In this document: piece by piece, positions 3,550 through 25,709 of the stretch
How positions within the stretch are numbered: position 1 is the stretch's first letter
Layout of the letters: each line of letters starts with the position of its first letter
Assembly: GCA_020199905.1 (NCBI GenBank)
Contig: JAIVJS010000021.1
Coordinates: 14,649-78,648, forward strand
Source of the DNA: Acidobacteriota bacterium
GTDB taxonomy: Bacteria > Acidobacteriota > Thermoanaerobaculia > UBA5066 > Gp7-AA6
DNA length: 64,000 bases
Direction: 5' to 3'
Position numbers and translations under genes: made by a program
Notes under the pieces: generated by a model
The model's input: only the letters and a program-made list of their open reading frames with translations
Databases searched by the model: none
Told to the model about the DNA's origin: nothing

Positions 3550-3679
3550 GATGGAAAGCCTGAACGAGCGTCAACACGCCCGACGCGAGGAAATCAGGGC
3601 CGCGCCGTACCGGATGAGCTTGTGGGGAAGGCGTTTCCCCCATCACCTGCGCGACGATGATCGCCAGACCGTCGGCCAC
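3550..3679 (-). pseudogene. C-terminal remnant of a TMEM165/GDT1 (UPF0016) cation transporter
   Basis: Correcting one extra G and one missing T gives VADGLAIIVAQVMGKRLPHKLIRYGAALIFLASGVLTL, typical of the UPF0016 C-terminus. No N-terminal part present. Confidence 0.55.
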
Positions 3680-10184: not shown

Positions 10185-10264
10185 ACCCCCGTCAACCGGC
10201 GTCCCGAGCTATCCATTCCGGCGCCGGCCTGTTCCCTTCCGGCGGGCTCCGCCAACTAACGGGA

Positions 10265-10402
10265 TCAACGACAGTCGGGATGCCCGCAGCCGCATTTCCC
10301 GCCGGACATCTTCCCCTGAGCGCAGGCCTCGGAGCAGGATCCGTTGGGTTGATCTGTCTGACATTTGCACGCGGCATGCTTGCATCTGGTTTCTTCAGCC
10401 AT
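10265..10402 (-). CDS. Metallothionein-like small protein (45 aa)
   Basis: MAEETRCKHAACKCQTDQPNGSCSEACAQGKMSGGKCGCGHPDCR: 8 Cys, 2 His; GGAGG SD before ATG 10402. Confidence 0.75.
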   Translation of the reverse strand: MAEETRCKHAACKCQTDQPNGSCSEACAQGKMSGGKCGCGHPDCR

Positions 10403-10499
10403 TTCTTTCCTCCCTGGCTTCGGAGGATGCAAGACTCGCACCTCGCTGAACGCGACCTGCGCCAGGTCGGGTTCCTGGATCTCCCGCTTCTCTTTGCTC

Positions 10500-11027
10500 C
10501 TACGGCTGCGCCGACGCATCGCGCTCGTACTGCCTGCGACCATACCGGGTGAGGCCCCGCGGCTTGTACACCGACAGTGTCGTGGCCACGAGCAACACCA
10601 GCAGTGCGGCGCCGGCATCAGCCACGAGTTGAATTCTCAGGCCGCGGAGATCGGCACCGGACAATGGCATCCGTGCCGCGACGCCTGCCACGTAGGACGT
10701 TGGCCGCATGTGCACCACCAGGAGAACGGTCGCAAGGATGGTGATCAGGAGTTTGATCAAGACCCAGTAGTGTCGGAACAAACCCCACGTGGTACCCAGC
10801 GCCTGGATCAGCCCTGTGAGCAGCGACGCGACACTCAGGGGGACGATGACGAGCCAGCCGATCAACTCCATCGCGAGATAGGCGGCACGCACCCTCTGAG
10901 CGTCCTGGCTGGCCAGACCGGCGACGGCGAGTGCGAGGAAGCCAGCGACCGCGCCGAGCCAGCCGACCGAGGAAGTGACATGCGCGGTGAGGGCGAACTT
11001 GCGGAGGCGGGGTGTCATCGTCATCAC
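10500..11027 (-). CDS. DUF2269-like integral membrane protein
   Basis: LTAHVTSSVGWLG, WGLFRHYWVLIKL, LSVYKP; four TM segments. Confidence 0.75.
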   Translation of the reverse strand: MMTMTPRLRKFALTAHVTSSVGWLGAVAGFLALAVAGLASQDAQRVRAAYLAMELIGWLVIVPLSVASLLTGLIQALGTTWGLFRHYWVLIKLLITILATVLLVVHMRPTSYVAGVAARMPLSGADLRGLRIQLVADAGAALLVLLVATTLSVYKPRGLTRYGRRQYERDASAQP

Positions 11028-11212
11028 GGCATGTGGCCCCGGAAGCCGCCGCCGGTCAGATGCAGGATGACAAAGAGAAGGACCAGGACGATCGCGATGA
11101 GCCCGAAGACGTAGACCCAGCGTGGTGTGCCGGGGGTGGATACGAGGTCGAATTCCCGACGGCTGATTCCGTCGTTGCCCTTGGAGTCGGGTTGAGGGGG
11201 TGGATCGGGCAC
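11024..11212 (-). CDS. Small single-pass membrane protein
   Basis: TPRWVYVFGLIAIVLVLLFVILHLTGGGFRGH; its TGA overlaps the next ATG. Confidence 0.6.
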   Translation of the reverse strand: MPDPPPQPDSKGNDGISRREFDLVSTPGTPRWVYVFGLIAIVLVLLFVILHLTGGGFRGHMP

Positions 11213-11267
11213 AGGGTTTCTCCTCGTCTGAGGCGCGTCGACCTCGAACCGGGACGCGAGTTTATCG

Positions 11268-11280
11268 AGACAGTCTGTCT
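11268..11280. promoter_or_regulatory. Candidate TetR operator
   Basis: Perfect palindrome AGACAG-T-CTGTCT in the divergent intergenic region upstream of tetR. Confidence 0.55.
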
Positions 11281-11337
11281 TGTGTCAAGTCATAGCGTCT
11301 CGACAGACCGACACTCGCGTCGCGCATACTGGGAAGG

Positions 11338-11910
11338 ATGCCGAAGCTCTGGAACGAGACCATCGAAGCGCACCGCCGCGAGGTTCGTGACGCGATCCTG
11401 GACGCCACGGCGGCGCTGGTGGCCGAGCGCGGGCTGGCGTCGGTGACAATGTCGCGGATCGCCGGGGAATCCAGGATCGGGCGGGCGACTCTTTACAAAT
11501 ATTTTTCAGGCGTCGAAGCGATCCTCGTGGCGTGGCACCAGCGTCAGGTCAGAGCCCACTTCGAGTACCTGATCCAGGTTCGGGACCAGGCGGGCGATGC
11601 GGGCGAGCGGCTCGAAGCCGTCCTCGAGGCCTTCGCGCTCATTTCTCACGAGCACCATGGCACGGAGCTCGCGGCACTCCTGCATCGGGGGGAGCACGTC
11701 GCCCGAGCGCAGCAGCACTTGAGCGACCTGATTCGAGACCTTCTGACCGAGGCCGCAAAAACCGGCGATCTCCGGGACGATGTCTCGCCTGACGAGCTGG
11801 CGAGCTATTGCCTCCACTCCTTGACGGCAGCCAGCCGTCTCCGTTCCAAGGCCGCGGTCCGCCGGCTCGTCAAAGTCATTCTGGCTGGACTGCGCCCCGG
11901 TCCCTCCTGA
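11338..11910 (+). CDS. TetR/AcrR-family transcriptional regulator
   Basis: ILDATAALVAERGLASVTMSRIAGESRIGRATLYKYF helix-turn-helix. Confidence 0.95.
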   Translation: MPKLWNETIEAHRREVRDAILDATAALVAERGLASVTMSRIAGESRIGRATLYKYFSGVEAILVAWHQRQVRAHFEYLIQVRDQAGDAGERLEAVLEAFALISHEHHGTELAALLHRGEHVARAQQHLSDLIRDLLTEAAKTGDLRDDVSPDELASYCLHSLTAASRLRSKAAVRRLVKVILAGLRPGPS

Positions 11911-11946
11911 CGCTGTTTCCGCAACACGACAAATCGCCCTTTGTTC

Positions 11947-12870
11947 TCAAAAGCCCGCTCCGCTCCGGAGTCTGGAGAGCAGTTGCATCATGCCCGCCCA
12001 TTCGCTTCTCAGTTCGGGGATGTCCATCTGCCGGAACTGGCGGTCGGCTTCGCGCCCGTCCTGCCACAGGTGATCGACGTTGCCGCGGACGTCCTCCGGG
12101 CTCAACCCGCGCTCGTACCGTTCGTGAAAAGCGTCGGCTTGCTGCGCGAAGTGCTCGATGGCCTCGACAGTGCCCCTCCGGCCCTCGTCGTCCCGGTAGC
12201 GGCCCGTGAGCTGGCTCGTCAGGCTGGACAGGCGCGCGGAGCGTTCGGCAAGTTCATGGGCCAGCGCCGCGACCTGCTCCCGGTCATAACCCCGCCCCTC
12301 CGGTCTTCCCACCTCATACCGATCATTCGACCGGTCGTTGGAGTAATAGCCCGAGCCCGCCGGCGGGGCAACGTGCTCGTCGCGGTATTGCGGTTCCGGG
12401 GCGCCGTACTGGTTGCGTGCGAGATCCGATTGGTAGACCCGGATCATCTGGTTCAGCAGGATGACCACCTGGTTCCAGTCGCCGACCGTGTGGCGATCCG
12501 CGTTCCGGGAACGTCTCAGCCGGTATTGAACCGCTCTGGCGTCGCGCAGGATGAGGCGCAGTTCGTCGTCGACCTGCCAGGGCGCCGTGCGGTAATCGTC
12601 CATGCGGTCGTGAAACCGATTCGCGCGGTTGGCAAAGCTGTTGATCGACCTCAGGAACCGGGGGTCGTGACCGTAGAACCAGACTCCCTGGTGCTGTGCC
12701 TGGTCGTTGGCGTGCTGGGCCTGCTCGTCGAGCTCGTGCGCGAATTGACGCATTTGCTGGTAGCCGCGGTCAGACAGGGTGTCGTGATCCCCCCTCGCGG
12801 TGCCCGCGGCCAGAAACAGAAGCGCGAACCCTGCCCCGAGGAGCGCCGTCGTTCTGTTTTTCGCGTTCAT
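11947..12870 (-). CDS. Hypothetical secreted two-domain helical protein (paralog of 18502..19407)
   Basis: GGAGG SD, signal peptide, internal repeat (FAHELDEQA / LAHELAERS), shared YRTAPWQxDDELR motif. Confidence 0.75.
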   Translation of the reverse strand: MNAKNRTTALLGAGFALLFLAAGTARGDHDTLSDRGYQQMRQFAHELDEQAQHANDQAQHQGVWFYGHDPRFLRSINSFANRANRFHDRMDDYRTAPWQVDDELRLILRDARAVQYRLRRSRNADRHTVGDWNQVVILLNQMIRVYQSDLARNQYGAPEPQYRDEHVAPPAGSGYYSNDRSNDRYEVGRPEGRGYDREQVAALAHELAERSARLSSLTSQLTGRYRDDEGRRGTVEAIEHFAQQADAFHERYERGLSPEDVRGNVDHLWQDGREADRQFRQMDIPELRSEWAGMMQLLSRLRSGAGF

Positions 12871-13134
12871 GCTGTCGCCTCCCAACTCTTCGTTTCAGCA
12901 AGGAACGGTCCACATCGGAAGGGCTGTGTCCGGAAGCACTTGCGGGTCGCGCAGAAGCCGGAGTGTCCTCCCTCGGGGACGATTCGTAACCCTCCGACCA
13001 TCCGGGCGGCCTCGCCGCCGCCTCGGACGGCAGCGTCCGCGTCGATCTGGCATCCGGGGGAAGCTCTCCGCCCTCCCGGGGCGGTCCACCCGGGTGGAAT
13101 CCGGGGCGTGTCGTGAGAGTTAGGAAGCCTTGAG

Positions 13135-13578
13135 ATGAAGACCCGGAGTTGCTTCGCCGTCGCGCTCGCTCTGGTCCTGGTGGCGTTGCCTGTCTTCGCC
13201 GGGGTTTGCGACCTGCGGTGCGCCTCGGCGCAGGGCGCGATGCGTCGCTTCGGGGTCCAGGAGAGGGCAACCGAATCGACCACCGGTTCCGGTCTCGACG
13301 CCATGTCCTGCCCTCTTCACGCCGCCGACAAGTCGGATCCGGAGCCTTTTCCATCGTCTTCGAGTCCCTGCCATGGCCAGCGCGGCGGTGGCAGCGGCGC
13401 CGTTCTCGTGGCCGCTTCCGCCTCCCCCTCCTCGATGAGCTTCGGCCACTCTCCGGCATTCGAAGCCTCGTCCGTCCCCGACCTCGTGCGCGCCGGCGCG
13501 AATTCTTCTCGCTCCCGCGAGTCCGAGTTTCACCGAAGGCCCGGGTTCTCCCCGCTTCTTTCGATCCTCCGACTCTAA
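13135..13578 (+). CDS. Secreted Cys-motif leader protein (DUF2946/CutF-like candidate)
   Basis: Signal peptide ending VFA, CDLRC, SCPLH, CHG, C-terminus RRPGFSPLLSILRL; first gene of the beta-barrel operon. Confidence 0.6.
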   Translation: MKTRSCFAVALALVLVALPVFAGVCDLRCASAQGAMRRFGVQERATESTTGSGLDAMSCPLHAADKSDPEPFPSSSSPCHGQRGGGSGAVLVAASASPSSMSFGHSPAFEASSVPDLVRAGANSSRSRESEFHRRPGFSPLLSILRL

Positions 13579-13580
13579 GA

Positions 13581-13668
13581 CTTCGTTCAACCAGGTCGTC
13601 ACCGCTCCTCCACGCGTTGAAGCGCGCCGGTCGGAGCGGCTCAGCAGTCCGTGAACCTGTGAACGAGG
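13581..13668 (+). promoter_or_regulatory. Anti-Shine-Dalgarno stem between the leader ORF and the beta-barrel gene
   Basis: CUUCGUUCA (13581-89) pairs with UGAACGAGG (13660-68), which contains the GAGG SD of ATG 13678. Inner stem CCGCUCC (13602-08) / GGAGCGG (13633-39). Confidence 0.65.
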
Positions 13669-13677
13669 ACTCCCGAA

Positions 13678-15081
13678 ATGAAAGCATTTGCTCCCGCATT
13701 CGTCTTCGCGTGGCTGATCGCCGGTGGCGCTCTCGCGCAGCACGAGCATCATTCCTCCGCGCCGTCGCCGACACCCACCCCGGCCCCGGAGGGTTCGACT
13801 CCGGGCGATAAGGATCCGATGAAGGGGATGGACCACAGCCAGATGGATATGCCGATGACCGGCGAACCTGACGCCAGCCGCAACCTCTTCCAGTCCGACA
13901 TGAACCTGATGACGGGGATGACACCGCACGATCCGATGGCGGGCATGACCGGCATGACCGGCTGGCACCTGATGGATATGGGAATCGCGCGGCTGTCCTA
14001 CAACCGGCAGGGAGGCGCATCGGGAGGCAACAGGATCGAGTCCAGCAACTGGAACATGATTCATGTCCAGAAAGCGATCGGTCCGGGCCGCCTGTCATTG
14101 ATGATGATGAACTCCCTGGAGCCCGCGACTTTCGCCAAGCGAGGCTCTCCTGAGCTCTTCCAGACAGGCGAGAGCTTCCGCGGGGAACCCCTCGTCGATC
14201 GGCAGCACCCCCACGACTTCTTCATGAACCTCTCCGCGACGTACCGGCTGGATCTGGGGCCCGACGCGGGCGCCTGGTTTCAGCTTGCGCCGGTCGGCGA
14301 GCCGGCCCTCGGACCGACCGCGTTCATGCACCGCGCTTCCTCCGGCGACAACGGAACCGCACCGCTCGGGCACCACTGGCAGGACTCGACGCACATCGCC
14401 TACAACGTCGTCACGCTCGGGGGAGGCTGGAAGTGGCTCGCTCTCGAGGGTTCCGCTTTTCGAGGAAGAGAGCCGGACGAACACCGCTGGGACATCGACG
14501 GAGGCAGGATTGACTCGGCTTCTCTCCGCGCGAGGTTCTTCTTCGGAGGAGGCTGGTCCGGCCAGGTTTCCCACGGCTACCTGCGGCAACCCGAGGATCT
14601 CGTGCCCGGAAACACGCATCGGACGACTGCCGCCGTGGAGTATGGAGCGGAAGGCGACCGGCCCCTCGCGGTGACGCTGCTGTGGGGGAGGAACGTGGAA
14701 ACACACGGAACGAGTGACGCCTACCTGTTGGAAGGGGCCTGGCAAATGACGGCGACAGATCAGCTCTACGGCCGCGCGGAGCTCGTTCAGAAGGATCGCG
14801 AGCTTCTCGAAACGAAGCAGAGCTCCGGCGGCCGCGACGGCGGCGGGCAAGAAGAGCTCGTCCGGGTCGGTGCCTACACGGCGGGCTACGTTCGGGATTT
14901 CGACTGGGTGTCCGGACTGCGGACGGGGATCGGCGCCGACGTCACGGCCTACAGCTTTCCGTCGAGCTTGAAGCCTGTCTACGGCGACTTTCCGCTCTCC
15001 GTCCATGCTTTTCTGCGGCTGAGATGGGGCTCGCCCCACGCGGCCGCCGGACACGCGGGACATGCTGGAATGAAGATGTGA
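13678..15081 (+). CDS. Putative outer-membrane beta-barrel protein with His/Met-rich termini
   Basis: Signal peptide, QHEHH, MKGMDHSQMDMPM, amphipathic beta-strand pattern, C-terminal HAAAGHAGHAGMKM. Confidence 0.7.
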   Translation: MKAFAPAFVFAWLIAGGALAQHEHHSSAPSPTPTPAPEGSTPGDKDPMKGMDHSQMDMPMTGEPDASRNLFQSDMNLMTGMTPHDPMAGMTGMTGWHLMDMGIARLSYNRQGGASGGNRIESSNWNMIHVQKAIGPGRLSLMMMNSLEPATFAKRGSPELFQTGESFRGEPLVDRQHPHDFFMNLSATYRLDLGPDAGAWFQLAPVGEPALGPTAFMHRASSGDNGTAPLGHHWQDSTHIAYNVVTLGGGWKWLALEGSAFRGREPDEHRWDIDGGRIDSASLRARFFFGGGWSGQVSHGYLRQPEDLVPGNTHRTTAAVEYGAEGDRPLAVTLLWGRNVETHGTSDAYLLEGAWQMTATDQLYGRAELVQKDRELLETKQSSGGRDGGGQEELVRVGAYTAGYVRDFDWVSGLRTGIGADVTAYSFPSSLKPVYGDFPLSVHAFLRLRWGSPHAAAGHAGHAGMKM

Positions 15082-15118
15082 CCGGCGGCCTGAAGATCAC
15101 GAATCGGGCCCGTCCGAG

Positions 15119-15303
15119 ATGGATCACTCCACGATGAACATGAAGGAGTCAGGTTCGGGGACCTCCGGTATGGACTATTCGAAAATGAAACGAGCCGGAG
15201 GATCCGACGCCCAGCGACCTACAAGGAAACGACCTACTACTTCTGCTCCAGGGCGGATAAGGAGAAGTTCCTCTCCGATCCCGCGAAGTACTTGAAACGC
15301 TGA
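15119..15303 (+). pseudogene. Degenerate Met-rich/YHS-domain gene
   Basis: One frame gives MDHSTMNMKESGSGTSGMDYSKMK, another gives TYKETTYYFCSRADKEKFLSDPAKYLKR*. The DPVCGM motif is absent and the frames do not join. Confidence 0.6.
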
Positions 15304-15312
15304 GGACGCAAG

Positions 15313-15942
15313 ATGTCGAAGCCGAAAGGGATCCTTCTCGTCCTGCTTCTCGCCTTCCTCGCCGGGGGCGCGGTCTTGTTCGCCGGCATGGTTCGGCGCG
15401 GTTTCAGTGCTCGGGACACGCCGTCGATGCCGGAGGCCTTCATGGCGCAACGGATGCGCCGCTGGTCGATCCCCGCGAAGGCGCGGGAGATGAAGAATCC
15501 GTTCGCGGACTCGGCGGAAGCCGTCGCCGGAGGTCGGGCGCACTTCGCCGACCACTGCGCGACCTGTCATGGCAATGACGGGAGGGGCAAGACGGAGATC
15601 GGCCAGAACCTCTACCCGAAGGCGCCGGACATGTGGGGCAGGGAAACTCAGAAGCTCTCTGACGGCGAGATTTTCTACATCATCAAGAACGGCGTCCGTC
15701 TGACCGGCATGCCCGCGTGGGGACAGGACACCCCGGAAGACGATCGGCAGTCGTGGCACCTGGTCGCATTCATCCGTCACATGCCGCGGATCACGGCGGA
15801 AGAGCTCGAGGCGATGAAAGCGATGAATCCCGTCAGCCCCATGGAGATGAAGGAAGAGAAGGAAACCGACGAGTTTCTGGAGGGAGGCGACGCGTCGAGG
15901 CCGTCTCCCGAGCACAAACCGGCCGCCAAACACGGCCATTGA
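15313..15942 (+). CDS. Membrane-anchored c-type cytochrome
   Basis: CATCH heme motif, YPKAPDM, LSDGEIFYIIKNGVRLTGMPAW. Confidence 0.9.
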   Translation: MSKPKGILLVLLLAFLAGGAVLFAGMVRRGFSARDTPSMPEAFMAQRMRRWSIPAKAREMKNPFADSAEAVAGGRAHFADHCATCHGNDGRGKTEIGQNLYPKAPDMWGRETQKLSDGEIFYIIKNGVRLTGMPAWGQDTPEDDRQSWHLVAFIRHMPRITAEELEAMKAMNPVSPMEMKEEKETDEFLEGGDASRPSPEHKPAAKHGH

Positions 15943-15956
15943 AAAGGAGTCTGATC

Positions 15957-16283
15957 ATGAGAAAGATACTCGGATCCCTGGTTCTCGCCGCGACGGTCCT
16001 GGTTCCCGGAGCTCTTCTGGCGCACGAAGGCCATCGCCACGTCATGGGAACGGTGACCGCCGTCGACGCGACGCACGTGGAAATCCAGACGAAGGATGGG
16101 AAGTCGAGCTCGGTCCCGCTCTCCTCGTCCACGAAGTACTACAAAGGCAGCAAGGGCAAGACGGCGGGTGCGGCCTCGGCGATGAAGGTCGGAACGCGGG
16201 TGATGATCGATCTCGCAAAGGACGGCAGCGCGAGTGAAGTTCGGTTGCCGGCAGGCAGGATGAGCTCGTCGCACAAGATGTAG
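15957..16283 (+). CDS. Secreted small beta-rich (OB-fold-like) putative metal-binding protein
   Basis: AAGGAG SD, ATG 15957, signal peptide then HEGHRHVMGTVTAVD...KVGTRV; CusF/DUF5666-like pattern. Confidence 0.65.
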   Translation: MRKILGSLVLAATVLVPGALLAHEGHRHVMGTVTAVDATHVEIQTKDGKSSSVPLSSSTKYYKGSKGKTAGAASAMKVGTRVMIDLAKDGSASEVRLPAGRMSSSHKM

Positions 16284-16634
16284 TTCAGTGGCGCTGCGTT
16301 GCGCGTCGTCACTATGGATCGCCCCGAACGAGTTCGTCCGCGAGCCGCAATCGCGGGATCCGGTCGGGGCCCGGCTACGGTTCCGCAGCCTGGGAGGGAT
16401 GAGGCGGCTCACTCCGACATGGGTGCAATCCAGAAGCTGAGGGTCATATTCGCGACCCTGGCGGCGCTTGCGGCGGTGGTCGCATTTGGCGGGCCTCTTC
16501 GGAGATCTTGCGATGCGCTCAGGCGAAATGGCGGCGATCTTTTTCAGGCCTCGGATGAGCCACTCGCCGCGACGGGTCGCTAGCCTGCCGGCCGCGTCGG
16601 GCGGCTTTGCCCCGTGCGGTCCGTCGAGGCGGGG

Positions 16635-16835
16635 CTATTTCCGATGTCCCGACCAGTGAAAGTGGGCGATTCTCCAGCGTCCCTTCTCCTTCTTGAGCAG
16701 GGCCGTCTCCGTTCCGATTCGCATGACCGTCTTTCCCCCAACGGTCCCCGACGTTTCCGAAATGCGTAGGACCCACGCCGCGTCCTTCACGCCGCCCGTC
16801 CGGGATTCGATCACTCGGGTCGATGCGGGTCGAGC
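16635..16835 (-). pseudogene. C-terminal remnant of a SnoaL/NTF2-like (DUF4440-type) protein
   Basis: Translates as ...KDAAWVLRISETSGTVGGKTVMRIGTETALLKKEKGRWRIAHFHWSGHRK*; no N-terminal half. Confidence 0.55.
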
Positions 16836-17279
16836 TCAATGCGCCCCTGCGATCTGATTCCCGAGCTCCGCGGAAAGAGCTTCACGAATCCGGGCGTCGG
16901 ACCCGAGGTAGACGACGATCAGGGGCCCTCTGCGGAAGATGTGGGGCGGCGCGATCCATCCGATGGCAGTCGTGCCCACCGTCCCACCGGACGGGGCGAT
17001 CCGAAGCGAGTCCGTGAGGGCCGCGCTCTCCGTCGGGTACACGAACACCTGGAGGTCATCGCCATTGACGGTGTAGACGGATCCAGGGACGGCGAAAACC
17101 GCGGAGTCGAGCGGATTGGCATAAGCCACCCCCAGACCTCGGGCGCCGAGAGCGGCAGCGAGCTGCTCGGCTCCGGCCGGCCGCGGCCCTGCCGGTCGGA
17201 CAGGGCCGTTGCGACTGGAACATCCAGCGGCCCCGCAGATCAGGGCGACGAGGAACCCAAGGGCATGTCTCATGTTCAT
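16836..17279 (-). CDS. Hypothetical lipoprotein
   Basis: Lipobox-like GAAGC after a hydrophobic stretch; PPHIFRRGPLIVVYLG. Confidence 0.65.
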   Translation of the reverse strand: MNMRHALGFLVALICGAAGCSSRNGPVRPAGPRPAGAEQLAAALGARGLGVAYANPLDSAVFAVPGSVYTVNGDDLQVFVYPTESAALTDSLRIAPSGGTVGTTAIGWIAPPHIFRRGPLIVVYLGSDARIREALSAELGNQIAGAH

Positions 17280-17387
17280 CGGACGGCTTGCCCGCCGAAA
17301 GTCTCCGGCAGAAGAGGGGCTCGGCGAAAATGAAGAGGGCGAGACCCCCGTCTCGCCCTCCTGTGTTCTCCCGCTACCGGGGCGCAA

Positions 17388-18215
17388 CTATTTTGCCGGG
17401 TCGCGCGGGCCGCTCCGGTCCTCGACGTCCGCTTGTCCGCCGTCGGCCCAGTTGACGAAAGTGAGGATCTTGTTGCCGTGCCCGAAATCGAGCTCGAAGG
17501 TTGAGGTGCTGCCATCCTCAGAACGCTCGATTTCTCTGCCCCACTGGCCCGGGCCGTCCAGAACCAGGTCTTCCATTGCCGGCGGCATGACGGCGGCGGA
17601 CTTGACGGTCGTGCTCGAGTCGAGATGCGTGTAGATGGTGACGAGCTCGTCGTAATCGTGCGCGTTCGGACGGGTGCTCAGGGTGCTTCCGGCGTTGGCG
17701 CCCGTGTTCGAAAAATAGTCCATACAGGTGTCTTGCGAGCTGCCGTCCGTGCTCTGATGGTCGAGCCCGAACGTATGGCCGATTTCCTGACACATCACGT
17801 GCCGTCGCTCGTTGGGGTTGTTGTAGGTCGCCGTGTCGAAGTAGGTGTCGTTGACTTTGACGGTGCCTTGCGTGATGTGCGTGCCGCCCGTGATCGAGAT
17901 CGACGCGAGCCCGAGCCAGCCGTTGTTGCCATACCGGCCGTTGCAGACCTGGATGGTGCCCGCGACGGCGGAGCAGTGCTTGTTCGACGTGCCTGTGACA
18001 GCGGTGAGGTTCAGGACGCTGGAGGATGTCCAGTCGGACAGGGCCGCGTCGAAATAGCTTTGCCAGTTCGAGTCGACGTTATCGCCGGTTTTGAGAGTGA
18101 AGGGGTTGGAGGTTCGCGCCCAGTGGTATCCGCCCCAGGAATGGTTCGCGAGAGCCATCGACGGAGACGCGATTACGAGAAGGGCCAGGATCACGCGGCG
18201 GGGAGTCCAGGACAT
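17388..18215 (-). CDS. Secreted metzincin-like metallopeptidase with a variant zinc motif
   Basis: Signal peptide; CQEIGHTFGLDH followed by a TCMDY Met-turn. Confidence 0.7.
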   Translation of the reverse strand: MSWTPRRVILALLVIASPSMALANHSWGGYHWARTSNPFTLKTGDNVDSNWQSYFDAALSDWTSSSVLNLTAVTGTSNKHCSAVAGTIQVCNGRYGNNGWLGLASISITGGTHITQGTVKVNDTYFDTATYNNPNERRHVMCQEIGHTFGLDHQSTDGSSQDTCMDYFSNTGANAGSTLSTRPNAHDYDELVTIYTHLDSSTTVKSAAVMPPAMEDLVLDGPGQWGREIERSEDGSTSTFELDFGHGNKILTFVNWADGGQADVEDRSGPRDPAK

Positions 18216-18501
18216 CAGAGCCTCCTTCTGAAGTGTGTCAGAAACGCCCAATCCTAAAAGAAAAATGCACTCGCGCGGCAGGTGAATCCTTGATGGGCGA
18301 GTGCCTGGTGGAGGGAATATACACCGCCCGTCGCCCCGCCCGAAGGCGTACCGAGTGACTCCGGCCGGCTGAAGTCCCGCTTCCTGAGAGCGACCGTCCT
18401 GTTCCGGGGACAGTTCGGTGACGGATCTCAGGTAAGTGCTTTTGTTTGAGCGCCTCGTTCTGGATCGAAGTTTGCTCCACGGAACCTCGGAGGTGAACTC
18501 G

Positions 18502-19407
18502 ATGAAATTGAGAACACGATGGTTGCTGGCAATCTCTGCCTGTGTCTGCGTTTCTTTTCTCGCGGCGAATACCGCGACAGCTCATGACCCCGTTACAGGG
18601 CGCGCATCCGGGGTCCTCTCGGACCGTGGCTACGAACGGATGCGCCAGCTCGCCCACGACCTCGACGGCCAGGCCGAGCACGCCAGTCAACAGGCCAATC
18701 AGGGCGGGGGATTTTATCGAAACGATCGCAATTTGCGGCGGTCCGTCGCCAATTTCGCGCGTCGCGCCTCTGACTTCCACTCGCGGATGGATACGTACCG
18801 CACGGCACCGTGGCAGCTGGATGACGAGCTGCGGGGACTCCTCCGGGATGCGCGGGCGGTTCAGTCCCGCATGCAGCGCTCCCGCAACACCGATGACCAC
18901 ACAGCCGCGGACTGGTCCAAGACGGTGGAAGTCCTGAACGAGATGATCCGGGTCTACCAGTCGGATGCGACCGGATCGACGTCTGATCAGGGCGGGTATG
19001 GACGTCAGGGAGACGCCGGGCGTTATGGCGACCGGTACGAAGCCCGCGGCTCGGCTCGAGGCGGTTACAACGAGCAACAGGTCGGCCCCTTGATCCACCA
19101 GCTCGCCGAGCGCTCGACGCGATTGATGGACGCGGTGAACCAGCTTTCAGGGCGTTATTCGGGTAGCACGGGTCAGAACCAGTCCGTCCAGGCGATCCAG
19201 CATTTCACCGAACAGGCAAATACCTTTCATGAGAGATATGAGGGGGGGCTGAGCCCGGAGGACGTGCGCGGGAATATCGGCCACCTCTGGGACGACGCGC
19301 GTGAGGCGGACCAGCAGTTCAGGCAGTCGAACATTCCGGAGCTGCAGGGCGAGTGGTCCGGGATGATGCAGCTGCTCACGCGGATCCGGAGCGCCGCGGG
19401 TTTCTGA
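18502..19407 (+). CDS. Hypothetical secreted two-domain helical protein (paralog of 11947..12870)
   Basis: GGAGG SD, ATG 18502, signal peptide, SDRGY..MRQLAHDLD, YRTAPWQLDDELR, EWSGMMQLLTRIRSAAGF. Confidence 0.75.
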   Translation: MKLRTRWLLAISACVCVSFLAANTATAHDPVTGRASGVLSDRGYERMRQLAHDLDGQAEHASQQANQGGGFYRNDRNLRRSVANFARRASDFHSRMDTYRTAPWQLDDELRGLLRDARAVQSRMQRSRNTDDHTAADWSKTVEVLNEMIRVYQSDATGSTSDQGGYGRQGDAGRYGDRYEARGSARGGYNEQQVGPLIHQLAERSTRLMDAVNQLSGRYSGSTGQNQSVQAIQHFTEQANTFHERYEGGLSPEDVRGNIGHLWDDAREADQQFRQSNIPELQGEWSGMMQLLTRIRSAAGF

Positions 19408-19646: not shown

Positions 19647-20090
19647 ATGAATAGAAAATGGCTCTTCGCGGCGGCTCTTGGGGCGGTGATCGTGACGGGC
19701 GTGTCGTCGCCGGCCCTGGCCGACGAGTATTGTGCGAGTCCCTACGCCGGTCAGAACGTTTACGTCGGCGGCGGGTACTCCCACGGGAACGGCGGATATG
19801 GCTACGTCCGCCAGCACGATTCGTACAACGGTGGATACGGGTACCAGGGAAATTACGGCTACCAGGGAGATTACGGCTACCAGGGAGATTACGGGTATCA
19901 GGGTAACTACGGTCACGGTGGATACCCGCAGACGCGATACCAGTATTCGCAACCCTACTACCAGGACGGCTACGGACGCCAGGGTTACGGCGCCACCGTG
20001 CACGAGGACCACACCAGGATCACCTTCAAGCCGTTCCCGTTCCCCCACATTGAAAAGCGCGTCGTCCATCACGAGCATCCGATTTACTGA
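19647..20090 (+). CDS. Secreted Gly/Tyr-rich low-complexity protein
   Basis: Signal peptide, GYQG(N/D)Y repeats, His-rich C-terminus, terminator downstream. Confidence 0.7.
   Translation: MNRKWLFAAALGAVIVTGVSSPALADEYCASPYAGQNVYVGGGYSHGNGGYGYVRQHDSYNGGYGYQGNYGYQGDYGYQGDYGYQGNYGHGGYPQTRYQYSQPYYQDGYGRQGYGATVHEDHTRITFKPFPFPHIEKRVVHHEHPIY
19839..19910 (+). repeat. Coding tandem repeat, 4 x 18 bp
   Basis: GG(G/C)TA(C/T)CAGGG(A/T)(A/G)A(T/C)TAC x4, encoding GYQGNY/GYQGDY. Confidence 0.9.
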
Positions 20091-20456: not shown

Positions 20457-22922
20457 GTGAGCAGTAAAGAACAGCGGCCCCCCGAGGCGAAGTCCGGAGC
20501 GAACCCTCTCAGGGATGCGGTCTGCGGGATGACGGTTTCGGAAGAAAGTTCCCATCGGGAAACATGGAACGGCCGGCCGTTCGTCTTCTGCAGTGCAGGG
20601 TGTCAGGAGAAGTTCAGGGAGCATCCCGAGCGCTACGTTCTCCGGCCCGAACCAGTGCCTCTTGCCGCGACCGGGACTGCGCCGGCGCCCATCGCTTCGG
20701 GAGAGAGTTTGACTTGCCCGATGCACCCGGAAGTCCGAGAAAAGAGCTCCGGCTCCTGCCCGAAGTGCGGCATGGCCCTCGAAGGAGTGATCCCCTCGTC
20801 TGCGGCCTCGAGGGCGCAGTGGACCTGCCCGATGCATCCCGAGATCGTCCGCGATGGTCCCGGCAGCTGTCCGATCTGCGGGATGGCGCTCGAGCCGCGG
20901 ACGATTTCGGCAGGCGACCGAGAGAATCCCGAGCTGGTTGACATGCGGCGGAGGTTCGCAGTCTCCGCTGTGCTGTCCGTTCCCCTTCTCGTCATTGCCA
21001 TGCGCGACCTCCTCCCGGGATCTGCCGGAATGGGCGCCTCCGGGGTCCTGCCGTGGGTCGAGCTCGCGCTGGCGACGCCGGTTGTCGTGTGGGGGGGCTG
21101 GCCCTTCTTCGTTCGGTTTGCGCAGTCGATCCGAAATCGCAGCCTGAACATGTTCACGCTGATCGGCCTGGGCGTCGCCGTCGCGTACTTCTACAGTCTG
21201 GCGGCCATCTTCTTTCCGGGTCTTTTCCCCGCGTCGTTCCGGGATGCTTCAGGACACGTCGGGCTGTATTTCGAAGCGGCGGCCATCATCGTCACGCTCG
21301 TGCTTCTGGGCCAGGTTCTGGAGTTGAAGGCCCGGAGCCAGACGGGTGCGGCGATCCGCGCCCTCCTGGATCTCGCCCCGAAGACCGCCCGCCGCATCGA
21401 GCAGGGCGGCGCCGAGGTCGATATCCCTCTCGATCAGGTCCAGGTCGGCGATCGGCTCCGGGTTCGGCCGGGGGAGAAAATTCCGGTCGACGGGAGCGTC
21501 GTGGAAGGCCACACCGCGGTGGACGAGTCGATGGTCACGGGTGAGCCGATTCCGGTCGAAAAGAATGCGGGTGATCGACTCATCGGATCCACGGTCAACG
21601 GCACCGGCTCGGTCGTCCTGACCGCGGAACGCGTCGGGGCCGAGACGATGCTTTCTCAGATCGTCCGGCTCGTCAGCGAAGCGCAACGCACGCGCGCGCC
21701 GATCCAGAAGCTCGCCGATCTGGTGGCCGGCTACTTCGTTCCGATCGTCATTGCCGTCGCCGTCATCACCTTTGGCGTCTGGGCGTTCGCCGGGCCCGAT
21801 CCCAGGATGGCTCATGGTCTCGTGAACGCGGTCGCGGTCCTCATCATCGCCTGCCCCTGTGCCCTCGGGCTCGCAACGCCGATGTCCATCATGGTGGCGA
21901 CCGGGAAGGCGGCAAAAGCGGGGGTGCTCTTTCGAAATGCCGAGGCCATCGAGTCCTTGCGAAAGGTCGACACCCTCGTGATGGACAAGACCGGAACGAT
22001 CACGGAAGGAAAGCCTAGGGTCGCAGAGATCCTGGCGCAGCCCGGATTCGAGGAGGCGGAAGTGCTTCGACTCGCGGCGAGCCTCGAGAGAGGAAGCGAG
22101 CATCCTCTGGCGGCATCCATCGTTGCGGCCGCCGGAGAGAGGCAGGTCCGACTCGAGCCAGTCGGCGACTTTCAATCGCGGACGGGACGAGGCGTGTCGG
22201 GCCGGGTTGCAGGACGCGCCGTCGCGCTCGGAAACGCGGCTCTCCTGGCGGAAATGGGCCTCGATCCGGCAGGGCTCGGCGCTCGGGCGGAGGACATGCG
22301 GTCGCGGGGTCAAACGGCGGTCTTTCTGGCCGTGGACGGAAAGATGGCCGGGATTCTCGGCATCGCGGATCCCATCAAGAAGACGAGCCCGGAGGCGATC
22401 GGCCACCTCCGCGCCGAAGGGATCCGCGTCGTCATGCTCACCGGCGACAGCAAGACCACCGCGAACGCGGTTGCGAAGGAGCTCGGAATCGACGAGGTCG
22501 TCGCGGAGGTGCTCCCGGAGGACAAGGTGAACGTCATCAAGCGCTATCAGGCTGAAGGCCGGTTCGTGGCGATGGCTGGCGACGGGGTCAACGACGCTCC
22601 GGCCCTCGCCCAGGCGCAGGTCGGAATCGCGATGGGGACGGGAACGGACGTCGCGATGGAAAGCGCCGGCGTGACGCTGCTCCGAGGCGACCTCCTGGGA
22701 ATCGTGCGTGCCCGAAGCCTGAGCCGCGCGACCATGCGGAACATCAAACAGAATCTCTTTTTCGCCTTCGTTTACAACGTGCTCGGAATTCCCATCGCAG
22801 GGGGCGTTCTCTATCCTTTTTTCGGTGTTCTTCTGAGCCCGATGATCGCTGCCGCGGCGATGAGCTTCAGTTCCGTTTCGGTGATCGGGAATTCACTGAG
22901 GCTGAGTCGAACGAAAGTTTGA
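20457..22922 (+). CDS. copA: Copper-translocating P1B-type ATPase with N-terminal YHS and two heavy-metal-binding repeats
   Basis: DAVCGM..FCSAGC, TCPMHPE x2, [35 protein letters not shown]. Confidence 0.95.
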
Positions 22923-23099: not shown

Positions 23100-23120
23100 T
23101 GATATACTCCCCCCCTGTAT
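23100..23120 (+). promoter_or_regulatory. Candidate CsoR/RcnR-type operator overlapping an extended -10
   Basis: ATAC-TCCCCCCCT-GTAT (23104-20), AT arms around a C/G tract as in RcnR/CsoR sites; overlaps TGaTATACT. Confidence 0.7.
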
Positions 23121-23145
23121 CACTTCTCCCGGAGGCGGAATACCA

Positions 23146-23448
23146 ATGAAGAGGTCTCTTCCCGTGATGGAAAAGGTTTTCGTGCCAGACCGGCGCAAGG
23201 AGGCCGTTCGGGCTCGTTTGAAGCGTGCGCGAGGGCAGGTGGATGGGATCGAGCGGATGCTGGAGGAAAACCGACCATGCGCCGAGGTTCTTCAACAGAT
23301 CGCGGCCGCGCAGGAGGCTCTGCGGGCCGCCGGGAAGCTCATGGTCCGAAGCTACATCGAGAAGTGCGCGGCGGAGGGAATCAGGGCCGGTCGAACGGAG
23401 GAAGTGTACGACGAGCTTTTGGACATCATCTACCGGATGGTCCGGTAA
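23146..23448 (+). CDS. CsoR/RcnR-family metal-sensing repressor
   Basis: RLKRARGQVDGIERMLEENRPCAEVLQQIAAAQEAL...YIEKC. Confidence 0.9.
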   Translation: MKRSLPVMEKVFVPDRRKEAVRARLKRARGQVDGIERMLEENRPCAEVLQQIAAAQEALRAAGKLMVRSYIEKCAAEGIRAGRTEEVYDELLDIIYRMVR

Positions 23449-23498
23449 CGTTGGGTCGATAAATCTCCTTTTCTGCTCGCTCTGATCACGGGATTCGA

Positions 23499-24356
23499 TT
23501 GATAAGAGCGACGTCGGCTCTCGCCGTTCTCGCCGCCCTGACGTTGTATCCGGCCGCCGCGCGAGCAACCGGGCACGGACCCGTGTACGGGGTCGCGACC
23601 CCGACGCTCGCGAAAGGCGCCTGGAGTCTGGATCTCGGGGTGATGAGCCGGAGCGTGGCCCGGAACAACACCTCCGTCATGTTGCGCCCGCTCATCGCGT
23701 ACGGAATCACGGAAGACCTGCAGGTCTCGGCGTCTCTCCCGGTGCCGCTGTACACGCCGGAGGGCATGCGTCCGGTCCGGATGATGGCCATGATGCCCGC
23801 GACCCCGGACGTCGAGGTGCTGCTCGGCTGGCGATTTCACCGGGAGGGCACCGGCGTCGGGTCCCGATTCGAGAGCACGGCGTACCTGGGCGTGGACTAT
23901 CCGACCGACTCGGTGCGCAACGGAGTCAAGACCTCTCCCGGCATCTACGCGGCCGCGGTGACCGGTTACGCCTCTCGCTCCGTCTATGCCTGGGCGGGTG
24001 GAATGTACAGGCGTTATCTGAGCCCGACGGGACCCACGACCGATCACCCGGGCGACCTTCTGATGTGCAGCCTCGTGGTCGGATATCGCCCGCCCGTCTT
24101 TCGCAAGGAACTGCCGCACGCCGACTGGCGAGTCTTCATCGAGGCGATCGGCGAGGTCATCGACCGGGATCGGCTGGCGGGCGGTGAACTCCCGAACACC
24201 GGAGGCAAACGGATCTTCGCAGGCCCGACGCTGCTCGGTCTCTACGGTTCGTGGGGGCTGTCCGGCGGTCCCATCTTTCCCGTCTACACCCGGCTCAACG
24301 GAACCCAGCCGAAGGATCGGGTGCGGATGGTCGTGAATCTGACGTACTGGTTTTAG
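23499..24356 (+). CDS. Putative outer-membrane beta-barrel transporter
   Basis: Signal peptide, GHGPVYGVATPTL, Met-rich loop MMAMMP, terminal aromatic VNLTYWF. Confidence 0.65.
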   Translation: MIRATSALAVLAALTLYPAAARATGHGPVYGVATPTLAKGAWSLDLGVMSRSVARNNTSVMLRPLIAYGITEDLQVSASLPVPLYTPEGMRPVRMMAMMPATPDVEVLLGWRFHREGTGVGSRFESTAYLGVDYPTDSVRNGVKTSPGIYAAAVTGYASRSVYAWAGGMYRRYLSPTGPTTDHPGDLLMCSLVVGYRPPVFRKELPHADWRVFIEAIGEVIDRDRLAGGELPNTGGKRIFAGPTLLGLYGSWGLSGGPIFPVYTRLNGTQPKDRVRMVVNLTYWF

Positions 24357-24368
24357 ATTGGGGGCCCA

Positions 24369-24890
24369 ATGAGACGAGTCATCGGTTCGGCCGCGCTCTT
24401 TAGTCTTCTCATGGCCGCTTCGGCGGCGGGAGAGATTCGGGAAATCCGGCAGGGGATCTTTGGAATGGATTGAGCGGTTTGCGCTCACGCCGTGAGCGTG
24501 GCCATGAAGAAGGTACCCGGCGTCGAGACGGTGCAGGTGTCGCTGAACAAGGGTGAGGCGGTCTTGAAGCTGAAGCAGGGCAATTCGGCCACCGTTGCGC
24601 AGATTCGTCAGGTGGTGGTCGATACCGGTTTCACGCCGAAGGATGCAGACATCGAAATCGCGGGGAAGCTGGTCGAAAGAGCGGGCAAGGCGGCGTTGGC
24701 CGTCTCGGGGACGGCGGTCGTCTACTCGCTCGTCGACCATCGGCAGGCTGTCGGAAAAGTCGATCAGCTGTGGAGGGAAGCCCGGGACAGGGACGTGGTC
24801 CTGCGCGGGCATCTCCCCGAGACCACGACGAAGGGAAAGGCCGAAGAACCTCGATCTCTCGAGGTCAGAGGTTTCGAGATGAAGCGATGA
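24369..24890 (+). CDS. Secreted HMA-domain selenoprotein (UxxC), 173 aa with Sec35
   Basis: ATG 24369, signal peptide, then IFGMD-TGA(24471-73)-AVCAHAVSVAMKKVPGVETVQVSLNKGEA in frame with ORF 24492..24890; TGA occupies the first Cys position of GMxCxxC. Confidence 0.85.
24476..24503 (+). promoter_or_regulatory. Candidate bacterial SECIS element
   Basis: CGCTCAC-GCC-GTGAGCG core stem (24482-98), extended by G-U and G-C pairs to 24476/24503; loop starts with G, 15 nt after the UGA. Confidence 0.7.
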
Positions 24891-25265: not shown

Positions 25266-25294
25266 TTGACACCGGCGCCTTCGAGGAATGGAAT
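25266..25294 (+). promoter_or_regulatory. Candidate sigma70 promoter for cutA
   Basis: TTGACA-N17-TGGAAT. Confidence 0.45.
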
Positions 25295-25304
25295 GTCGAA
25301 TTGC

Positions 25305-25709
25305 ATGCGCAGCCAGGACCTCATCGTGGTGGTCACCTCGGTCGGAACGGAAGAGCAGGCCCTGGACATCGCGCACGCCCTGATCCGGAATCGCCAGGCG
25401 GCGTGCGTCAACCTGATCCCGAACGTGCATTCGATCTACCGCTGGAAGGGCCGCGTGTGCGACGACGGGGAGTTCCTCCTTCTGATCAAGAGCCGCGCCC
25501 GGGAGTTCGAGGGCGTCTGCGAGACCATCCAGAAGATCAATACGTACGAGCTTCCCGAGATCCTGGCGTATCGCGTCGACGAGAGTTCTCCCGGCTTCGC
25601 GGACTGGATCACGCGGACGACGGAGCACCCCAAGCGCAAGTCGAAGAAGAAGGGTCCGAAGCTGGTCGCGTCTCCCGTCCCCCTGCGCCGCCGCGCCGCC
25701 TCCCGTTAG
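25305..25709 (+). CDS. cutA: Divalent-cation tolerance protein CutA with a basic C-terminal tail
   Basis: AACVNLIPNVHSIYRWKG, EFLLLIKS, NTYELPEIL. Start is 25293 or 25305. Confidence 0.9.
   Translation: MRSQDLIVVVTSVGTEEQALDIAHALIRNRQAACVNLIPNVHSIYRWKGRVCDDGEFLLLIKSRAREFEGVCETIQKINTYELPEILAYRVDESSPGFADWITRTTEHPKRKSKKKGPKLVASPVPLRRRAASR

Follow-up and report, generated by a model that had tools for sequence, protein, structure and literature searches.

A predicted outer-membrane beta-barrel encoded in tandem with a periplasmic selenocysteine HMA protein at soft-metal resistance loci of several bacterial phyla

What could an outer-membrane barrel be doing next to a small secreted metal-binding protein whose gene carries an in-frame TGA at its metal site, and do the two belong together at all? 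This question is raised by a locus in a stretch of 64,000 nt (the window in what follows) from an Acidobacteriota bacterium (assembly GCA_020199905.1, contig JAIVJS010000021.1, positions 14,649-78,648, forward strand), in which all features discussed here, one discarded ORF apart, lie on the plus strand. A promoter and operator (23100-23120) precede a gene for a CsoR/RcnR-family repressor of 100 aa (23146-23448, with an alternative start at 23167), a gene with a TTG start for a predicted outer-membrane beta-barrel of 285 aa that belongs to an unnamed family (23499-24356), and a gene for a 173-aa HMA protein (24369-24890), whose ATG at 24369 lies 12 nt past the barrel stop codon. The locus is bordered directly upstream by copA (20457-22922), encoding a CopA-type P1B ATPase (YHS, two HMBD and the P-type ATPase core in Pfam), and directly downstream by the gene for a CutA1 divalent-ion tolerance protein (25293-25709; PF03091, E 2.8e-29), and besides these two CusCBA is also encoded in the window. 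An earlier note on this DNA had described a C-tract operator over an extended -10 element, a csoR-like gene, a barrel-like gene with an N-terminal GHG and an MMAMMP loop, and the selenocysteine HMA gene 12 nt after it, and all of these are indeed present in the sequence. A minus-strand ORF (23430-24812) was dropped because it runs across the barrel and HMA genes, which are conserved; long antisense ORFs are frequent in this G+C-rich window.

The barrel and HMA genes are found together wherever we looked for them. A full-length HMA homolog lies directly 3' of the barrel gene at all 49 barrel loci found in GTDB genomes, and, seen from the HMA side, a barrel homolog (41-42% identity) lies directly upstream in the three loci chosen (3/3). 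Divergent paralogous pairs (~25% identity) are likewise linked (loci L041 and L044), and the paired loci span Acidobacteriota, Gemmatimonadota, Ignavibacteria, Rhodothermales, Balneolaceae, Chitinophagaceae and Burkholderiales, among others. The arrangement is far beyond chance, and the linkage to HMA genes, whose absence the earlier note had named as grounds for giving up its proposal, is thereby established. The note had also spoken of a three-gene unit directly downstream of copA. All three genes are there and copA does adjoin them in the window, but the conserved unit is a two-gene cassette of barrel and HMA protein, and the adjacency to copA is not kept among relatives: only 10-11 of the 50 loci have a CopA homolog in their flanks, and CopA does not count among the conserved partners. 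The csoR-like gene is an addition specific to a lineage, found for the most part in close Acidobacteriota loci, and MerR-family regulators are found elsewhere instead.

The HMA gene is split by gene callers into ORFs of 34 and 127 aa, and database entries for its product are truncated proteins of 128 aa. The window holds neither a tRNA-Sec nor sel genes (its only tRNA is a tRNA-Met), and Rfam returned no known RNA family, and hence no SECIS family, at the hairpin described below. One could thus read the TGA (24471-24473) as an ordinary stop, the HMA gene as broken or as two small ORFs, and its place next to the barrel as incidental. This reading can hardly be credited when the related loci are compared. 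The codon aligns exactly to the first Cys of the GMxCxxC motif, and among 49 related loci the same position is an in-frame TGA in 40 independent ones and TGC or TGT in nine distant ones, with the reading frame and coding sequence conserved on both sides. The sole signal peptide of the HMA protein and the first beta-strand are encoded 5' of the TGA, which also argues against a stop at this place. Downstream lies a SECIS-like hairpin (24481-24501), recognised by folding and by comparative pairing. In the register shared by the family, it begins 11 nt after the UGA and consists of a 6-bp stem, UCACGC (24485-24490) with GCGUGG (24496-24501), around the 5-nt loop CGUGA; an alternative fold of the window sequence is GCGCUCAC-GCC-GUGAGCGU (24481-24499). 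Pairing in the family register holds in 97.8% of cells over 31 selenocysteine loci, versus 15-65% in slid-register controls, and one G-C pair is replaced by a compensatory A-U pair in L009 and L029. Fourfold-degenerate third positions are invariant within the stem and variable before and after it, and the hairpin is missing from the Cys-form loci. Retention of the hairpin, with its compensatory change and frozen synonymous sites, is not what an ordinary stop would lead one to expect. In-frame UGA, flanking conservation, aligned Cys homologs and a downstream SECIS stem-loop are among the criteria applied to bacterial selenoproteins, and by these comparative criteria the product of the HMA gene is a genuine selenoprotein, as the earlier note had read it.

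The HMA protein consists of a signal peptide (residues 1-20), an HMA domain (~26-93) and a C-terminal beta domain (~95-170). Its metal-binding loop reads GMDUAVC, with U35 at the first metal-binding Cys position and C38 at the second; with U replaced by C, the protein scores 39.3 bits against PF00403 (cut-off 24.8), which together with the GMxCxxC loop, located between the first strand and the first helix of a beta-alpha-beta-beta-alpha-beta fold, places it in the HMA family. In sequence, CopZ and Cu-ATPase domains are nearer to this domain than MerP is, and the protein stays well below the cut-offs of more specific families: 36.1 bits against the MerP equivalog TIGR02052 (cut-off 92.55), 34.3 bits against NF041115 (cut-off 95), a metal-binding family with UxxU where the window protein has UxxC, and 20 bits against the MerT/CopZ fusion NF045683 (cut-off 375). 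The C-terminal domain, a second conserved part of the protein that was lacking from the picture drawn in the earlier note, resembles DUF5818, some Cys-form homologs scoring 27.7, 24.9 and 19.9 bits against a gathering threshold of 27; our literature search found no paper naming DUF5818. As a stand-in for the window protein, we used a structure model of the Cys-form homolog P0288 (pLDDT 89.5, pTM 0.80), in which the HMA domain is followed by a domain of five strands and one helix. This model superposes on CopZ and MerP (target-normalised TM 0.8-0.89), and its Foldseek matches cover the HMA half only, leaving the C-terminal domain without a structural neighbour.

The barrel protein carries a signal peptide (residues 1-23), ends in YWF, and is predicted with confidence by AlphaFold2 as a 12-stranded barrel (pLDDT 86.6, pTM 0.81). 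A signal peptide, an even number of closing antiparallel strands and a C-terminal aromatic residue are typical of outer-membrane barrels, and the assignment made in the earlier note is thus supported by the model. An N-terminal segment, GHGPxYGxxTPTL (residues 25-37), is conserved in the family, with GHGP (25-28) invariant. The Met loop MMAMMP (residues 95-100, positions 23781-23798) is conserved in part, its invariant portion being M99-P100 only, and the conserved Met and His residues are H26, M49, M61, M99, H183 and M189. A long turn, RPxxFxxxxPxPDWR (residues 197-211), is conserved as well, and the order of the strands places it on the periplasmic side. We found 787 barrel homologs in a database clustered at 90% identity, all of them unnamed and devoid of Pfam domains, and the family comprises 383 representatives at 50% identity. 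The barrel gave no match in Pfam even at E<=10 (Phenol_MetA_deg/COG4313 and CopB, PF05275, included) and none in NCBIfam; a profile of 32 sequences retrieved nothing meaningful from the PDB sequences, and a tblastn search of the PLSDB plasmids returned no match. With Foldseek, the top matches of the model are FapF and a COG4313 channel (E 3.5e-7 to 1e-5, TM 0.58-0.70), with a probability of 1.00 for FapF and 4RL8.

In the window, the pair is preceded by an extended -10 element of the form TGnTATACT (TGATATACT, 23100-23108), which overlaps the operator ATACTCCCCCCCTGTAT (23104-23120), a C-tract between the arms of an AT-rich inverted repeat (ATAC-T-C7-T-GTAT). In operators of the CsoR/RcnR class, a G/C tract stands between the arms of an AT-rich inverted repeat, and the window operator near the promoter conforms to this description. 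The 17-mer occurs a single time in the 64 kb, versus 0.02 by chance, and L001 and L003 have it unchanged 5' of their orthologous genes despite differing flanks; similar ATACCC...GGGTAT palindromes precede the orthologs of L006, L019 and L036. A sigma-70 scan returned no -35/-10 pair at the promoter region, and there is no copy of the operator upstream of copA. The regulator itself is a member of PF02583 (85.3 bits, cut-off 22.8; E 3.8e-24), and its matches among PDB sequences are CsoR, InrS and FrmR. Cu(I)-sensing CsoR proteins are characterised by an x-C-H-C triad (Cys36, His61 and Cys65 in M. tuberculosis) and a second-shell Tyr35 (bioRxiv 10.1101/2021.07.25.453692). The window regulator falls outside this subclass, as the Cys pair is present but the His and Tyr35 are replaced: its sensor positions are x-C45-Y70-C74, Tyr70 aligning with the Cu(I)-ligand His and Pro44 with the second-shell Tyr of the CsoR structures 4M1P and 2HH7, and Pro is also found in InrS (5FMN alignment). 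Tyr70 is kept in L001-3, L006 and L019, and the Tyr70/Pro44 pattern across six orthologs. Without the Cu(I)-ligand His in the regulator, copper sensing is therefore not to be assumed.

The neighbours of the pair were counted over 50 loci, and correspond to mercury and copper/silver resistance genes, in line with the soft-metal setting that the earlier note had supposed. They include MerR-family regulators (22 loci), MerA passing the NCBIfam cut-off (17; a representative scores 529.6 bits versus 454.45), MerT (9), CsoR (7) and also CusABC. By type, 23 loci have mer neighbours only, 7 copper only, 10 both and 10 neither (mostly on short contigs). A MerT-like membrane protein (family C4), which hhalign assigns to the MerT superfamily with a probability of 97.7%, adjoins the pair in 14-16 of the 50 loci, and in L038, L039 and L043 the pair lies between copA and cusCBA. 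The regulators directly 5' of the pair are mixed, comprising CsoR-like proteins of the x-C-Y-C type and MerR proteins. The idea that all neighbouring MerR genes are of the Hg type was rejected, as their alignment gave at least three subtypes, none reaching an equivalog cut-off, and a firm assignment to mercury was therefore withdrawn; with such heterogeneous regulators the metal is not fixed. The window itself contains no MerA, MerT, MerT-like gene or MerR and so falls short of a mer operon (MerA, MerR and a MerT/MerP pair at one locus); the inward relay proposed for the relatives thus has no obvious acceptor here.

The best explanation of the whole, which we hold to be modestly probable, is that the barrel acts as a soft-metal conduit and the HMA protein as a periplasmic selenolate sink, within a metal-regulated operon whose conserved core, a cassette of two proteins, acts at the outer membrane and in the periplasm. 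The HMA domain, exported through the Sec pathway, would hold a thiophilic metal ion between Sec35 and Cys38, and the DUF5818-like C-terminal domain would most likely dock the protein on the barrel, so that the selenolate site would form a sink of very high affinity at the periplasmic mouth. Any Hg(II), Cu(I) or Ag(I) that comes through the outer membrane could then be captured at once and passed on, in many relatives to a MerT-like inner-membrane protein and then to MerA, and in the window to the efflux machinery of Cus and CopA. Bound at its C-tract operator, the CsoR-family repressor would silence the operon until its two-Cys site reacts with the inducer. The computation shows the gene structure, the selenoprotein status by comparative criteria, the barrel fold, the strict pairing and the metal-resistance setting, while the docking, the passage of metal through the barrel, the inward flux, the identity of the metal and the inducer of the repressor are inferred; for the direction, the presence of the MerT-superfamily protein beside the pair is taken as fitting an inward route. 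A bolder version, which we put forward tentatively and regard as possible rather than probable, is that the barrel represents the first dedicated outer-membrane part of a soft-metal route of the mercury type, from which the selenocysteine metallochaperone, docked via its DUF5818-like domain, would in many lineages hand its metal over to an inner-membrane protein of a new MerT-like kind, forming a complete envelope-spanning relay with selenium as a ligand.

The same genes could work in the opposite direction, the HMA protein taking up periplasmic Cu(I) or Ag(I) pumped out by CopA and the barrel letting the metal out down its gradient, a role that has been proposed for PcoB/CopB. The window lends itself to such a release, with copA immediately before the cassette and CusCBA and CutA1 close by, and so do the loci with the pair between copA and cusCBA, the conserved Met/His residues and Met-rich loop of the barrel, of the kind that typically binds Cu(I)/Ag(I), and the closeness of the HMA sequence to CopZ and Cu-ATPase domains. 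We nevertheless consider it unlikely: a selenolate-thiolate site binds its metal so extremely tightly that it would donate poorly to a passive exit route, the MerT-like importer adjoins the pair in the 14-16 loci mentioned above, MerA/MerT neighbourhoods exceed copper-only ones (23 vs 7), and the barrel has no sequence match to CopB/PcoB. The Asp of GMD(U/C), more typical of divalent-metal sites such as those of ZntA-type HMA domains, is invariant in the family, which also speaks against a release of monovalent copper or silver.

Two further explanations are less probable still. The nearest solved folds being FapF polypeptide transporters, and the strict gene order placing the barrel before its putative cargo, the barrel might export or anchor the HMA-DUF5818 protein so that its selenol faces the medium and binds metal extracellularly. 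This is very unlikely given that the HMA protein, as modelled on P0288, is a compact two-domain globule and not an unfolded or amyloid-type substrate, and that FapF resembles the barrel in fold only (TM ~0.6, 10-13% identity), with the small-molecule channels of COG4313 matching equally well. The cassette might also handle reactive sulfur or selenium species and no metal at all, as x-C-x-C clusters of the CsoR family, such as those of CstR-type proteins, are persulfide sensors (bioRxiv 10.1101/2021.07.25.453692), and the window repressor, with Tyr in place of the Cu(I)-ligand His and Pro in place of the second-shell Tyr, shows this pattern. That too seems quite improbable: most loci have MerR-family metal regulators, the neighbours are MerA, MerT, CopA and Cus, the GMxCxxC loop of the HMA domain is a classical metal site, and genes for the detoxification of sulfide or sulfite did not turn up next to the pair.

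We found no name for a barrel-HMA system in the family libraries or the literature searched, in line with the earlier note, which had not recognised a characterised system here. A close analogy is MerP-MerT, which likewise combines a secreted HMA protein, a two-residue soft-metal site, an adjoining membrane-protein gene and a metal-responsive regulator, and many relatives of the pair sit beside MerR, MerT, MerA and the MerT-superfamily protein. Yet the partner of MerP is a helical inner-membrane protein, whereas here it is a predicted outer-membrane beta-barrel, and the window HMA protein differs from MerP by an extra C-terminal domain of ~80 aa and by selenocysteine at the first ligand. A review of mer systems depicts only diffusion for the passage of Hg(II) through the outer membrane and mentions no mer protein there (PMC8261052), and our literature search found no outer-membrane mer component. 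Selenocysteine in place of Cys in a CxxC-type heavy-metal site (PMC2398784; PMC13188914) is shared with NF041115, the NF045683 MerT/CopZ fusion, and earlier HMA/mercury selenoproteins, the "MerP" family of the GOS data and a UxxC cation ATPase; the architecture of signal peptide, HMA and DUF5818-like domain with an obligatory barrel partner was not found in the passages of these sources that we consulted.

FapF and COG4313 (Pput2725-type) channels are of similar size, have 12-strand barrels and are the best structural matches to the window barrel, but they are only 10-13% identical to it, and what they carry, amyloid subunits or hydrophobic molecules, has no relation to metal genes. In PcoB/CopB and CusF-CusCBA, too, a Cu/Ag resistance island encodes an outer-membrane protein, a small periplasmic metallochaperone or both, and the window barrel has Met-rich segments. 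However, the barrel has no sequence match to CopB (PF05275) and is not a TolC-like trimeric duct. The metal site of CusF is made of Met, His and Trp, while the window chaperone has an HMA fold with Sec and Cys as ligands. The window repressor shares PF02583 and a G/C-tract operator with an AT-rich inverted repeat over the promoter with CsoR and CstR, and differs from CsoR by its x-C-Y-C pattern and by Pro (as in InrS), not Tyr, before the first Cys, and from CstR operons in that sulfur-detoxification genes are not near.

An unnamed barrel family thus goes strictly together with a periplasmic HMA protein within mer/cop/cus islands of several phyla, and the pair makes a missing outer-membrane step of Hg(II) passage directly testable. 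Judged from sequence, the HMA protein would also offer a clear case of selenocysteine serving as a metal ligand and not as a redox catalyst, with natural Cys variants for comparison. The sequencing runs that hold the region are DNA metagenomes from sediment, soil and permafrost, with no RNA run among them. The cassette genes are systematically mis-annotated, the selenoprotein being split or truncated and the barrel labelled "hypothetical", and both are therefore missed in metal-resistance surveys of soil and sediment metagenomes.

The genes for the predicted outer-membrane barrel (23499-24356, + strand, between a CsoR-family gene and the HMA gene) and for the secreted HMA protein (24369-24890, + strand) form a pair that is conserved far beyond this genome. 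The barrel family comprises 787 homologs in a collection of 5.8 billion proteins, none of which carries a name or a Pfam domain; among clusters formed at 50% identity, an exhaustive HMMER search recovers 383 representatives. Scanning the GTDB species genomes yielded 49 barrel loci, from lineages including Acidobacteriota, Gemmatimonadota, Ignavibacteria, Rhodothermales, Balneolaceae, Chitinophagaceae and Burkholderiales, and in every one the barrel gene is immediately followed, on its own strand, by the gene for a full-length HMA-protein homolog. Two loci (L041 and L044) even carry divergent paralogous barrels (about 25% identity), each followed by its own HMA paralog. Conversely, a barrel homolog (41-42% identity) was found directly upstream of all three HMA-family proteins that were picked solely for their long contigs. 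The linkage check set beforehand in the earlier note, with unlinked barrels as the refuting outcome, thus came out in favor of the pair from the barrel side (49/49) and from the HMA side (3/3), and we consider the link real. The same note had proposed a three-gene unit; all three genes are present in the window, but the conserved unit is the barrel and the HMA protein, as a CsoR-like x-C-Y-C protein precedes the pair in close Acidobacteriota loci and MerR subtypes are found in other lineages.

The HMA gene starts 12 nt after the barrel gene and contains an in-frame TGA (24471-24473, + strand) exactly at the first Cys of the GMxCxxC motif, as had been read from the sequence; with Cys substituted there, the protein passes the HMA gathering score. 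If this TGA were an ordinary stop codon, as public gene calls imply by splitting the gene into ORFs of 34 and 127 aa (L050:10868-11380), the signal peptide and the first beta-strand, coded 5' of it and kept in frame, would be cut off. Yet TGA occupies the same codon in 40 of the 49 loci (GMDUAVC and close variants), and the nine most distant ones have Cys instead (GMDCAPC). A hairpin, CCACGC-CGUG(C/A)-GCGUGG, is common to the Sec loci 11 nt after the UGA (its first pair is U-G in the window); it is absent from the Cys-form loci and matches no Rfam family. Across 31 loci, 97.8% of its cells pair, a figure that drops to 15-65% once the partner is shifted by 1-3 columns. A compensatory change from G-C to A-U occurs in two loci, and fourfold-degenerate third positions within the stem are invariant, while all four bases are found at that of the Val codon just 5' of it. 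These patterns argue for a genuine selenoprotein. Database entries are 128-aa fragments labeled "CopZ" or "hypothetical". Assignment to MerP (36 bits versus 92.55) or to the UxxU family NF041115 (34 bits versus 95) was ruled out. Selenoproteins of the HMA type or related to mercury have been described before: the excerpts of a GOS survey describe a two-sequence "MerP" selenoprotein family (PMC2398784), and those of a 2026 review list a UxxC cation ATPase, a UxxU metal-binding protein and a MerT-type selenoprotein (PMC13188914); the HMA-DUF5818 architecture and the barrel partner were not found in these excerpts.

Residues 95-170 of the HMA protein constitute a conserved domain, for which some Cys-form homologs score at or just below the DUF5818 gathering score of 27 bits (27.7, 24.9 and 19.9 bits). 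In the model of one such homolog, P0288 (pLDDT 89.5, pTM 0.80), the last HMA strand continues into a five-strand, one-helix domain, and Foldseek recognized the HMA half alone. The AlphaFold2 model of the barrel, built from 32 homologs (pLDDT 86.6, pTM 0.81), consists of a signal-peptide helix, an irregular 18-residue N-terminal segment and 12 strands, ending in YWF. The proposed barrel-like gene with an N-terminal GHG is therefore upheld, and this N-terminal segment, GHGPxYGxxTPTLxxG, is the most conserved part of the protein; the MMAMMP loop, also emphasized at first, is only partly conserved (e.g., HGMSRMP in Gemmatimonadota). (Near-)invariant residues include H26, M49, M61, M99-P100, H183 and M189, as well as many Arg, Asp and Glu. 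Window positions 23568-23582 encode residues 24-28, adjoining a conserved AxA; if signal peptidase cuts after it, the mature barrel would start X-G-H, a putative NH2-X-X-His (ATCUN-like) motif that, as read from the alignment, is conserved family-wide.

All ORFs of 50 loci (the window and the 49 others) were clustered, and the clusters were named from matches to NCBIfam, to Pfam or, by blast, to genes of the window. This revealed a MerR-family regulator in 22 loci, MerA in 17 (representative 530 bits versus a cut-off of 454), CopA in 10, MerT in 9, CsoR in 7, and CusA, CusB or CusC in 3-6 each. By locus, 23 have mer-type neighbors only, 7 copper-type only, 10 both and 10 neither, the latter being mostly short contigs. 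The pair in L050, on a Gemmatimonadota-like contig of 1.5 Mb, comes after a riboflavin operon, with merR-merT-merP-merA about 4.4 kb upstream of the pair. A membrane protein of about 125 aa, C4 (14 of 50 loci), is marked by the motif TLxCCALP, which is invariant, and by a further pair of Cys residues, and matches no Pfam or NCBIfam model. By hhalign, this predicted inner-membrane protein is related to MerT (probability 97.7%, E 2e-12), which makes it a member of the MerT superfamily at the profile level. Its gene adjoins the pair, either preceding the barrel or following the HMA gene (L004, L009, L012, L013 at 3155-3595, L020, L025, L026, L036, L039, L041, L042, L044-L046, L049, L050, L052, L054), and a recurrent extended operon comprises a regulator, a thioredoxin-like gene, a small HMA gene, C4, the barrel and HMA-DUF5818 (L052, L054). 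The regulators directly upstream of the pair are heterogeneous, with at least three MerR subtypes outside close Acidobacteriota. A Gemmatimonadota subtype upstream of the barrel (L005:4004-4621, L008:4658-5089, L015:5133-5579, L017:4708-5391, L018:3427-3858, L029:890-1450) lacks a Cys equivalent to MerR Cys82 and has CxC-x6-CP in the metal loop, and a second (L011, L021, L024, L032, L038) has CxC just before IIES. As none of these subtypes reaches an NCBIfam equivalog cut-off, context does not fix the metal, mercury and copper/silver being the likeliest.

In the window, the predicted C-tract operator over an extended -10 was recovered: TGATATACT (23100-23108, + strand), 177 nt after the end of copA and thus downstream of it as proposed, overlaps the 17-mer ATACTCCCCCCCTGTAT (23104-23120, + strand). 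The latter occurs once in the 64 kb, where 0.02 matches with up to three mismatches are expected, and L001 and L003 carry it unchanged 5' of the regulator ortholog despite differing flanks; classical ATACCC...GGGTAT palindromes replace it in L006, L019 and L036. No second copy was found 5' of copA, suggesting that the operon is regulated on its own. The csoR-like gene (23146-23448, + strand) matches PF02583 with 85 bits, which places its product in the CsoR family by sequence, a membership that does not imply the inducer. Aligned to the CsoR structures 4M1P and 2HH7, it has Tyr70 where the Cu(I)-ligand His would lie and Pro44 in place of the second-shell Tyr, both kept in six regulator orthologs adjoining barrels. 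In the W-X-Y-Z scheme it is x-C-x-C, the persulfide-sensor pattern, rather than x-C-H-C (bioRxiv 10.1101/2021.07.25.453692). A rival reading, a role of the pair in sulfur or selenium species, would agree with this pattern; still, the two-thiolate site could bind Hg(II), Cu(I) or Ag(I).

The reading we favor is a gated conduit in the outer membrane that works with a selenolate sink in the periplasm. The HMA protein, once secreted, would dock on the barrel via its C-terminal domain and capture a thiophilic metal on entry, passing it in relatives to the MerT-like protein and on to MerA, and in the window to Cus. The opposite direction, outward metal release as proposed for PcoB, seems less plausible because a Sec-Cys site would, on chemical grounds, be a sink rather than a donor, and because no other membrane protein neighbors the pair as often as a MerT-type importer. 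Surface display through a FapF-like pore would draw on the closest solved folds, FapF (E 3.5e-7, TM up to 0.70) and the COG4313 channel 4RL8; yet sequence identity to these is just 10-13%, and no sequence-level relationship to Pfam or PDB sequences was found. The kinds of components involved are known (HMA fold, metal-site selenoproteins, outer-membrane barrels, CsoR repressors). The family libraries and literature excerpts searched contained neither the barrel family nor the HMA-DUF5818 architecture nor the obligatory pairing of the two, in line with the initial impression that this is not a characterized system. The strict pairing across several phyla and the predicted role of Sec in metal ligation make it noteworthy, and it might supply the outer-membrane step that is missing from mercury and copper trafficking.

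The window itself has no MerA, MerT, MerR or C4. CopA (20457-22922, + strand), a P-type ATPase, carries an N-terminal YHS domain and two HMBD domains instead of HMA domains, and the CPC, YN and MxxSS motifs in its translation would fit a Cu(I)/Ag(I) pump. The left 24 kb, with a CusCBA-type RND efflux system (3780-9773, - strand) and with CutA1 nearby (25293-25709, + strand), may be a metal-resistance island, since its G+C content (63-65%) is slightly below that of the rest (mostly 66-72%). Between the cus genes and copA (10000-19400), seven long ORFs, among them 12770-14098 (-), 13678-15081 (+) and 18436-19407 (+), have no Pfam match, and some may not be genes, the DNA being G+C-rich. Directly upstream of copA, a secreted 147-aa Gly/Tyr-rich protein, likewise without a Pfam match (19647-20090, + strand), contains 4.3 copies of an 18-nt tandem repeat, GYQGNYGYQGDY... 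(19836-19912).
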